The notes beneath the pieces are model-generated. The model was not told the DNA's origin, ran no database searches, and was given only the letters and a program-made list of their open reading frames with translations. From a virus: a stretch of DNA of 41,941 nt. A program made the translations under genes and the position numbers. Shown here one piece after another: positions 15,861-16,557 of the stretch; positions within the stretch are counted from its first letter, which is position 1; each line of letters opens with the position of its first letter. The stretch lies in UHGV virus genome UHGV-2134446; one strand, given 5' to 3'.

Positions 15861-15990
15861 AAAAAATCCACCCTATTCTGCCTAGAGTGGACCCAAAGAA
15901 GAGTAAACAAATGAAAAATTGGATTGGTTGGTATGAGTCTACATTACAACTTTTATTAATTAAACTCAACAAATTTATGACGATTTTCTA
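15861..15990 (-). ncRNA. sRNA-like unit C (minus strand): third copy of CCACyC...GAGTGG terminator; promoter weaker/unclear
   Basis: Hairpin tccaccctattctgcctagagtgga 15868-15892 with A-run 15861-15866; shares stem sequence with units A and B. Confidence 0.25.
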
Positions 15991-16200
15991 ATCAATAATA
16001 TCTATTACATTGAAATAATGATAAAATAAAAATCGAAGAGTATTAGGCGCACTTCCCCAAGTTTTCACCGCCTAACTACTCTTCATAAAGTATTGCACGC
16101 ACCTACTAATGTATAATATAAACTTATTTACTGCAAGTAAAACGAATATAAGAAAAAAAGCCCCCTACTCTAATTGAGTAAGGAGTTTCTCTTTTGTGTC
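15988..16200 (+). ncRNA. Tandem repeat copy 1 (plus strand): extended -10-like TGATAAAAT, 15-bp-stem hairpin gaagagtattaggcg / cgcctaactactcttc, terminator ccctactc-taatt-gagtaagg plus T-run
   Basis: About 135 bp of roughly 80-85% identity to copy 2 at a 267-bp period; hairpin 16035-16086; terminator 16161-16198. Confidence 0.4.
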
Positions 16201-16254
16201 ATGAATTTACAATCACAATATGCTGAAAAACATAAAAGTATTTTAGACGATATT

Positions 16255-16452
16255 CTAAACAATAATATCTATTAAAATGAAATAATGATAAAATAAACAA
16301 GAAGAGTATTAGGCGCACTTCCCCAAGCATTACCGCCAAATACTCTTCGTAGATTGTTGCACTTACTAATGTATAGTATGAACCTAATTATTTCAAGATA
16401 ATTGCACCCTAAATGGCTTCCCTGCTCTTAAATGAGTAAGGAGCTTTTGTTA
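16255..16452 (+). ncRNA. Tandem repeat copy 2 (plus strand) with the same promoter-like box, conserved 15-bp-stem hairpin and weaker terminator
   Basis: gaagagtattaggcg...cgccaaatactcttc hairpin 16301-16349; loop cacttccccaag identical to copy 1; gcttcc...ggagc plus ttttgtt near 16415-16450. Confidence 0.4.
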
Positions 16453-16557
16453 TAACATAAAATTGTCAATCCGTCTTATACAAACATTAGTTCCTCTTGT
16501 TTTCCGTTTAATTTAATAAGTATAATGTAAGTAAATTTTTAAAAAGGAGTTTTTAAA

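Follow-up and report, generated by a model that had tools for sequence, protein, structure and literature searches.

Tandem repeats in an Enterococcus phage genome carry a predicted RNA module of two facing promoters and one hairpin

The C-rich-loop small RNAs (sRNAs) of Firmicutes are UCCC-motif RNAs, among them the RNAIII hairpins of Staphylococcus aureus, the Rsa RNAs and LhrC1-5 of Listeria, and they often occur as sibling or tandem copies. The Sib/Ibs loci of E. coli are tandem units of ~150-300 bp in which a small RNA is fully antisense to a short transcript, and the Ibs proteins are conserved toxins of 18-19 amino acids. In the par/Fst systems, found on enterococcal plasmids, phages and islands, convergent promoters share a terminator hairpin and the loops start the RNA-RNA complex (PMC7472228). 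SdsR and RyeA of E. coli are mutually cis-encoded sRNAs with face-to-face promoters, one of them acting in trans and the other as its antagonist, with transcriptional interference between the two (PMC6610125). How do two tandem repeats in the virus genome UHGV-2134446 compare with these systems? The stretch of DNA analysed here (41,941 nucleotides, referred to as the window) is a complete or nearly complete genome of a temperate siphovirus-like phage with an Enterococcus host, and the repeats begin at positions 15988 and 16255 of its plus strand.

Comparison with related sequences suggests that each repeat is a self-contained non-coding sRNA module. A plus-strand RNA would start with a long hairpin, an overlapping minus-strand RNA would end with it, and the two would act as a C-loop regulator and its antisense partner; we put the probability of this reading at about one half. 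It occurs in temperate phages, prophage remnants and plasmids of the Enterococcus casseliflavus/gallinarum group and belongs to none of the systems named above, having no Rfam match and no conserved toxin open reading frame (ORF). By analogy, its working would come closest to that of the Firmicutes C-rich-loop sRNAs, joined with a mutually cis-encoded arrangement of the SdsR/RyeA kind. The layout of two promoters and one hairpin is unusual, yet it stays within known kinds of antisense and small-RNA regulation.

Like the C-rich-loop sRNAs, the module has its own predicted promoter and terminator, contains no ORF, displays an apical C-run able to pair with a G-rich Shine-Dalgarno sequence, and occurs in several copies per genome, some of them in tandem. 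An unpaired C-run is kept while the stem varies, with CCCC at the apex in all subfamilies. Unlike these sRNAs, it shows no sequence or Rfam relationship to them, places its hairpin at the extreme 5' end, faces a conserved promoter, and is borne by phages and plasmids. With par/Fst it would have in common convergent promoters, here predicted and conserved, and one shared hairpin whose complementary loops could start a kissing complex. It differs from par/Fst in that no conserved toxin ORF was found, the plus-strand RNA would start at the hairpin instead of ending there, and DRa/DRb repeats were not seen. No Fst-like toxin ORF of ~30 amino acids was found in the units, and MNLQSQYAEKHKSILDDILNNNIY, the plus-strand ORF that precedes hairpin 2, is hydrophilic.

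The likeness to SdsR/RyeA would consist in two predicted non-coding RNAs that lie opposite each other and start from face-to-face promoters, which sequence comparison supports here. In contrast to that pair, the module is unrelated in sequence and host, its predicted overlap is centred on one hairpin, and it is mobile and multi-copy. Tandem repeats with an antisense RNA also recall Sib/Ibs, but the candidate peptide of the module fails codon-position and frame tests. We found no Ibs-like conserved peptide of 18-19 amino acids with a Shine-Dalgarno sequence, as the peptides of 12-46 amino acids differ in frame, start and length. Nor do the loci resemble a type III toxin-antitoxin system of the ToxI kind, most of them being single-copy with no conserved downstream gene.

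Two copies of one hairpin

A preliminary description of this DNA, made from its letters alone, had noted two similar plus-strand segments. These are real, and form units of ~150 bp that are 83% identical. Positions 16255-16397 were aligned by blastn to positions 1-150 of the unit starting at 15988 (82.7% identity), and direct repeats of 58 nt (90%), 38 nt (87%) and 39 nt (82%) recur at spacings of 267, 266 and 260. The RNA folds of both units beat all 200 shuffles (z about -3.5), and a covariance model of the hairpin finds exactly two copies in the 42-kb window, scoring 83.5 and 70.5 bits, the next best match reaching 13 bits.

The extended -10-like box and the hairpin with a 15-bp stem, both part of the preliminary description, were found in each unit. 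The box, TGATAAAAT, lies at 16019-16027 in unit 1 and, by repeat comparison, at 16286-16294 in unit 2, on the plus strand, and is the predicted promoter of the plus-strand RNA. The hairpin of unit 1 (16035-16084, 83.5 bits) has arms at 16035-16049 and 16069-16084 with one bulged C; its loop, CACTTCCCCAAGTTTTCAC (19 nt, 16050-16068), begins with CACTTCCCCAAG (16050-16061) and carries the CCCC apex at 16055-16058. That of unit 2 (16301-16348, 70.5 bits) has arms at 16301-16315 and 16334-16348, with an A.A mismatch and no bulge, and a loop of 18 nt, CACTTCCCCAAGCATTAC (16316-16333), with CACTTCCCCAAG at 16316-16327 and CCCC at 16321-16324. The loops had been described as identical and 19 nt long; only their first 12 nt, CACTTCCCCAAG, are in common. 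Compensatory changes between the two stems, also claimed, are absent: the left arms are identical and the changes in the right arm one-sided, copy 2 having lost the bulged C and gained the A.A mismatch relative to copy 1.

Covariation is seen among the relatives. With loop-anchored patterns the count of copies that have the exact loop 12-mer rose to 90, with 47 distinct hairpins, from IMG/VR contigs, metagenomes and E. casseliflavus NBRC 100478. In 31 distinct stem sequences, 90.5% of alignment cells fall in standard pairs, as against 34-47% when partners are slid. Six pairs have changed on both sides, and none of 500 shuffles reaches the observed values. Double changes convert GG-C / G-CC into GA-T / A-TC (loci L028a and L032) and T.A into C.G (L052, L057); in L021 an inserted G pairs with the otherwise bulged C. 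A structured RNA, rather than a protein or a DNA site, had been proposed, and the proposal agrees with a stem that covaries across 31-47 distinct relatives, a fixed loop motif, an extended -10 kept at a set distance from the hairpin with its middle base free, and a plus-oriented terminator after the unit.

All 28 family loci that were found with the loop left out of the search pattern carry CACTTCCCCAAG, and UUCCCCAA is still at the tip in diverged subfamilies and plasmid copies. The apex is a CCCC tetraloop on an A/U-rich mini-stem, which ranges from 3 bp in copy 2 to 11 bp in a plasmid copy (CAGAAAAACUU-CCCC-AAGUUUUCUG). The '8133' and '9836' subfamilies show two C-rich motifs in a single loop. 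Every type has an A-run in front of the hairpin; read from the minus strand, this becomes a U-run behind it. A T-run on the plus side as well is confined to the short types, and the long type is without it.

Upstream of the promoter, unit 1 has a plus-strand box, TGACGATTTTCTAATCAATAATATCTATTA (15978-16007), that contains the small dyad TAATA-TC-TATTA; its counterpart in unit 2, by repeat comparison, is TTAGACGATATTCTAAACAATAATATCTATTA (16243-16274). The box is common to the long, '8133' and 'L042b' subfamilies; '9836' has part of it, and other subfamilies lack it. The idea of an operator in common with the phage repressor switch was considered and rejected, since within the window the box occurs at the two units only and the region 11280-11480 uses a different repeat. 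The intergenic region between repressor and cro (11285-11310, 11430-11481) has repeated TTTCTATAGAAAACTATAA-like operators that overlap TTGACA-17-TAAAAT and are distinct from the box upstream of the RNA units.

Does the tandem pair reflect a recent duplication? Single copies in several other phages (L002, L003, L012, L013) match copy 1 at 92-96% identity, and copy 2, with only 83% identity to copy 1, has an upstream flank like that of L004, L007, L011 and others. From these relationships the pair looks like the product of recombination of modules between phages rather than of recent local duplication.

Facing promoters and a proposed mode of action

The plus-strand promoter, TG-n-TA(A/G/C)(A/G)AT with n being A, C, T or G, is kept in 31 of 31 upstream variants (90 copies) and stands 6-9 nt before the foot of the hairpin. 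It persists even where the upstream DNA is unrelated, as in L094 (TGTTACAAT), L088 (TGCTAGAAT), L111 and L028b. Such a pattern would be expected of an extended -10 promoter from which transcription starts at the hairpin. In relatives a GC hairpin with a T-run follows 100-110 nt later, reported for the plus strand only. A hairpin and T-run had been described after each unit of the window; they are seen, but the one behind copy 1 folds better on the minus strand. It occupies 16161-16196 with A-run and T-run flanks, a bidirectional form, and at 16161-16185, listed by the scan as a minus-strand terminator (16185->16161), reaches -19.3 kcal/mol on the minus strand versus -13.9 on the plus strand. 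The terminator-like hairpin of unit 2, followed by CTTTTGTT (16415-16451, plus), gives -13.0 kcal/mol on the plus strand versus -10.5 on the minus strand.

Three related terminators of the form TACTC-nnnn-GAGTAAGG(A/G)G, at 16171-16193, 16429-16451 and 17805-17827, end unit 1, unit 2 and the pair formed by the downstream cassette and the endolysin gene. In related phages this TACTC...GAGTAAGG type alternates with GCCCGCnnnnGCGGGC. The shared terminator is possibly a joint for module recombination.

Each unit also appears to contain a conserved promoter on the opposite strand, which the preliminary description lacked. All 12 subfamilies with mutually unalignable 3' flanks have the pattern TTGnnn-16/17-TAnnnT on the minus strand, its -10 ending 19-26 nt short of the hairpin; when a flank is shuffled, such a site arises at a frequency of 4-11%. 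In unit 1 the predicted minus-strand promoter (16108-16141) reads TTGCAG (16136-16131) -17- TACATT (16113-16108), or alternatively the overlapping TTTACT-17-TATTAT, which is the site given by the promoter scan (16141->16113). In unit 2 it is TTGAAA-17-TACATT (16368-16396, minus; scan 16396->16368), with 9/12 matches and a -10 that ends 19 nt before the hairpin. A second TATAAT/TATAGT-like box had also been described. It has no usable -35 on the plus strand (13-nt spacer), and by comparison the stretch lies inside the minus-strand promoter, the -10 TACATT (16113->16108 in copy 1) abutting the box.

In the long type, an invariant GCAAG corresponds to the TTGC of the minus -35, the variable base of CTAAT-n-TATAG is position 3 of the minus -10, and the most variable 4 nt fall between this -10 and the predicted start, where conservation (UGCGUGCAAUAC) resumes. 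On the plus strand these first bases of the predicted minus-strand RNA are GTATTGCACGCA, just 3' of the hairpin (16090-16101 in unit 1) and almost unchanged across 44 long-type sequences, with the adjoining 4 nt variable. GTATTGCACGCA was not found elsewhere in the window, and its complement was found only in the units. A structured 3' domain of the plus-strand RNA was considered and rejected: RNAalifold gave no supported helix, and the small hairpin UUACUGCAAGUAA has uncompensated changes. GCAAG, by contrast, is invariant and fits a -35 of the other strand. Convergent transcripts are most likely produced within each unit. The preliminary description had seen convergence with the neighbouring minus-strand units at 15640-15960; these and the plus-strand units stand back to back, in divergent orientation.

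These elements can be assembled into a model. The core of the module would be one long hairpin, with a stem of 14-16 bp, a short A/U-rich mini-stem and the CCCC tetraloop, across which two promoters face each other. From the extended -10 (TG-n-TAAAAT), 6-9 nt upstream, a plus-strand RNA would begin at the hairpin foot and run in the window for about 150-165 nt to the terminator. From the minus promoter (TTGnnn-17-TAnnnT), ~20-25 nt beyond the hairpin, a minus-strand RNA of ~75-85 nt would start with UGCGUGCAAUAC and end at the same hairpin, there followed by a U-run as in an intrinsic terminator. Since both RNAs would span the hairpin, they would be fully complementary over about 75 nt. The plus-strand RNA would present the UUCCCCAA apex as an anti-Shine-Dalgarno-like seed for G-rich ribosome-binding sites of host or phage mRNAs, for instance by pairing of CACUUCC with GGAGGUG (one G.U) or of UUCCCCAA with UUGGGGGA. 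The minus-strand RNA, an exact complement with a GGGG tip, may antagonise it by loop-loop kissing and duplex formation, and collision of the convergent promoters could add a transcriptional layer. The roles of the two RNAs could be swapped. The regulatory function itself is suggested by analogy with the systems named above.

Several points weigh against this model. Both promoters and all RNA ends are predictions, and in AT-rich DNA promoter-like hexamers are common. The relatives are closely related, so that the shuffle test inflates the significance of the covariation; the slid-partner control and several independent double changes nevertheless offer persuasive support for the stem despite this kinship. 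The constancy of the loop among the exact-12-mer copies is partly imposed by the search, as loop-anchored patterns required CACTTCCCCAAG for much of the 90-copy set. A 15-bp stem with a 19-nt loop is atypical of an intrinsic terminator. The minus fold is the more stable one in 46 of the 47 distinct hairpins (mean -21.9 versus -18.3 kcal/mol), about 1-2 kcal/mol of this advantage being a constant loop effect. Wobble pairs choose neither strand: G.U pairs of the plus strand occur in L022, L031a, L052 and L062, whereas A.C pairs, which become G.U when read from the minus strand, occur twice in the commonest type, L039, and also in L069, L088, L099 and L028b. With half-compensated pairs of both kinds present, the choice of a strand by G.U versus A.C pairs was dropped. 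Undecided wobble pairs and two promoters together leave as the simplest reading that both strands are transcribed across the hairpin, as predicted.

A further difficulty concerns targets. The complement of the loop was not found elsewhere in the window or in the fetched loci, and no specific target emerged from them. The G-rich ribosome-binding site GUUGGGGGAAAU of the first lysis gene (start 19775, minus) pairs with the loop over 8 bp, but G-rich sites at 39707, 33151, 39330 and 17513 pair as well or better. The lysis-gene site was set aside as not significant, other phage sites being its equal, and is a lead only. This gene encodes a protein of 154 amino acids with an N-terminal membrane segment and no Pfam match; its ribosome-binding site, GUUGGGGGAAAUUAAAAUG (19775-19800), is unusual, is kept in homologues in L014, L038, L047 and L051, and has 8-bp complementarity to the UUCCCCAA loop. 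Pairing of a neighbouring minus-strand RNA (terminator 15864-15894) with an arm of the hairpin was also rejected, as the 11-nt match is lost in homologues, which have UACUUUUC.

If the transcripts exist, the module would represent a regulatory RNA family borne by phages and plasmids in motile, intrinsically vancomycin-resistant enterococci (E. casseliflavus, E. gallinarum, E. innesii). Lying beside the lysis genes in a part of the prophage that is expressed in lysogens, it could affect host gene expression or the timing of lysis. One hairpin serving as 5' stem-loop and as antisense terminator would make a compact model of antisense control and convergent-promoter interference, and the module may be of use as an annotation marker for accessory-cassette boundaries in these phages. 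A bolder version, which we consider quite speculative, is a new RNA device of mobile elements: face-to-face promoters locked on one hairpin, with a C-loop RNA and its exact G-loop antisense working as a bistable or dosage-sensing switch, or as a decoy against a host factor or defence, and spread in arrays (up to five per 4 kb) among accessory cassettes.

Weighing the alternatives

Could the units act as DNA, or through a peptide? A terminator or insulator at the DNA level, placed between moron cassettes and the late lysis operon and kept as a homologous joint for module exchange, would account for the A-run flank and T-run that give the short types the form of a bidirectional terminator. It would also suit the placing of the units at the borders of cassettes, in a single orientation throughout, with five of them inside 4 kb between moron genes and the endolysin gene in L028 and four in L032 and in L070. 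The abrupt change of flanking DNA at their edges and a wobble analysis that speaks for neither strand would agree with it as well. A terminator has no need, however, of a CCCC tip that stays fixed across subfamilies while the stem changes, of an extended -10 held 6-9 nt from the foot in unrelated contexts, or of a second promoter held at a set distance beyond its other end, and the long type has no plus-side T-run; we regard this explanation as unlikely. A MITE-like (miniature inverted-repeat transposable) element was rejected, the unit edges being without terminal inverted repeats.

More doubtful still is a type I toxin-antitoxin system, in which the minus-strand RNA would read through the U-run and encode a short hydrophobic toxin, MRLILFFFILSLFQRNRYY or in copy 2 MLGEVRLILFLFILSLFHFNRYYCLEYRLKYFYVFQHIVIVNS (16330-16199), with the plus-strand RNA as antisense antitoxin over its start region. 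Most copies keep one minus-strand frame open across the 3' arm and the T-run, which would encode F/L/I-rich peptides of 19-46 amino acids, and in the L041 type the peptide has 30 amino acids and a basic N-terminus (MKSIRRWKLGEVCLILFFLILALFLFNRYY). The layout, with its convergent promoters and common hairpin, resembles par/Fst of Enterococcus (PMC7472228), tandem copies would be in keeping with type I loci, and the module sits on phages and plasmids. Yet T-rich DNA yields F/L/I-rich peptides by composition alone, and variable sites are spread evenly over codon positions 1/2/3, with counts of 9/8/8 for the long form and 8/3/2 for the short one, most changes being non-synonymous. Length changes of +1 and +2 in the A/T-runs shift the frame in several lineages, including copy 1 of the window, which is left with 15 amino acids; the L028a type stops after 12-18 amino acids and the '5100' type has an in-frame stop. 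Start codons vary by subfamily, and all of them lack a suitably spaced Shine-Dalgarno sequence. At 11-13 residues the hydrophobic stretch is short, and it includes an Asp in the commonest type; against Pfam the peptides match no toxin family even at E = 10, with one sub-threshold match to DUF3923. The minus-strand toxin peptide was rejected on codon-position counts, frame shifts, absence of Shine-Dalgarno sequences and lack of a Pfam match.

The two remaining explanations tie the units to their surroundings. The preliminary description raised the possibility that they control the cassette at 16558-17815, as cis-regulatory leaders (which could be attenuators or riboswitch-like) or as sRNAs dedicated to it. 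Copy 2 does read in the same direction as this cassette, from 210 bp upstream, and its weak terminator (-13 kcal/mol) makes some read-through possible; a co-oriented gene follows in about 17 of 72 distinct contexts. In 40 of the 72, on the other hand, the next gene (at least 120 amino acids) points towards the unit, and its end lies 134-210 nt beyond the loop, immediately behind the unit terminator; it usually encodes an endolysin, with at least six different C-termini. The co-oriented genes are unrelated, differing from group to group and separated from the unit by a terminator, and upstream lie variable accessory cassettes. With the unit constant and the genes variable, the unit is not a leader of the cassette in the window. 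The cassette also has a promoter-like site of its own (TTGTTT-18-TATAAT, 16497-16526), no Rfam cis-regulatory family matched, and no alternative terminator/antiterminator pairing was seen in the units. We consider dedicated control of the cassette highly improbable. Scarcely credible is duplicated host DNA beside an attachment site (an attB/attP remnant), although the region between integrase and lysis genes is where attP would be expected. Between the end of the integrase gene at 14468 and the units lie three conserved genes (14795-15540), and the units are intact in phages with different neighbours and on plasmids. In addition, when one genome for each of 185,579 species was searched for an exact 19-mer, the sole match was E. 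casseliflavus NBRC 100478, in a context that looks like a prophage remnant.

The family and its genomic setting

A 27-mer common to both copies is present in 12 IMG/VR contigs, and a pattern of right arm plus linker, with the loop left out, gave 16 further family loci. Diverged subfamilies with other loop lengths were found by a profile search of the fetched loci, and a locus often holds more than one copy on the same strand, L028 having five within 4 kb and L032 and L070 four each. Further copies were located by blastn between the genes of plasmids from E. gallinarum, E. casseliflavus and E. innesii. No Rfam 15 family matched the window at gathering score. At 15400-16700 only chance-level matches appeared (E of at least 0.3, far below gathering score), and the units in 10 related loci matched none, also at E <= 10; the Infernal search that the preliminary description had looked to connects the hairpin with no known RNA family. 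Among 50,697 GenBank phage records nothing matched the window region or the five-copy region of L028, and the wider 6-kb region matched only an integrase and hypothetical gene (LC625742.1) and one unannotated record. In the literature the loop 12-mer appeared only in unrelated eukaryotic primers, and the module is not described in the searched papers on sRNAs of E. casseliflavus or of prophages. On this comparison, the module is a real, conserved family of predicted small RNAs of E. casseliflavus-group mobile elements, new to Rfam, to GenBank phages and to the searched literature.

Arrays of three to five diverged units on one strand (L028 at about 8060-12000, L032, L070, L031) are interleaved with accessory genes, which include a chitin-binding-like protein of 214 amino acids, an acetyltransferase-like protein of 145 amino acids and membrane proteins, and sit between integrase-proximal genes and the endolysin gene. 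The plasmid units of L117 (CP014068.2) and L118 (NZ_CP068129.1), at 3001-3112 of the locus, lie in unannotated intergenic DNA. Near the former are genes for a resolvase, a MerR regulator and a protein with a TIR domain; about 1 kb from the latter, a type I toxin of the Fst family is annotated.

In the window, a lipoprotein gene (12338-13222) and the tyrosine integrase gene (13314-14468) read rightward on the plus strand, followed by the three small conserved genes (14795-15540; DUF5960 and phrog_15227). Two of their ORFs, 15018-15362 (114 amino acids) and 15256-15540 (94 amino acids), overlap by 107 nt in different frames, and both have homologues beside the integrase gene in related phages; the overlap is either real or one start was miscalled. 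Late and structural genes read leftward, with a Dp-1-type holin gene at 18907-19299 and an Amidase_5 endolysin gene at 17827-18612. The repeats are located in the 2.3 kb that separate these two convergent gene blocks, an accessory (moron) region adjoining the lysis genes.

Next to the plus-strand units, at 15640-15960, lie three tandem mini-units on the minus strand, each with a promoter and a terminator. Two of the promoters come from the scan (TTGAAC-17-TATAAT, 15741-15713; TTGAAA-17-TAGAAT, 15859-15831) and the third, TTGAGT-17-TAATGT, was found by eye. All three terminators (15676-15655, 15783-15759, 15894-15864) are strong, their stems have CCACUC in common and show the anti-Shine-Dalgarno-like runs CUCCUCCCC and CUCUCCUU, and the mini-units are predicted to give ORF-free RNAs of ~60-80 nt. 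The third mini-unit also stands beside the plus-strand unit in L002, L025, L042, L047, L110, L112 and L113.

On the other side, the cassette at 16558-17815 (plus) consists of a gene for a 137-amino-acid protein (DUF6941 / phrog_5881) followed by genes for proteins of 186 and 100 amino acids, neither of which has a family match. It is probably accessory or defence cargo; none of the cassette proteins matched PADLOC models, and a link of the neighbouring genes to a defence system was rejected on that ground. The cassette and the endolysin gene, which converges on it, share a perfect bidirectional terminator (17790-17825). At the same hotspot, the accessory region of the related phage L002 has another pairing of RNA and protein cargo, a DUF3800-I RNA (Rfam RF02969, 72 bits) at 187-305 on the minus strand beside an ORF of 230 amino acids.

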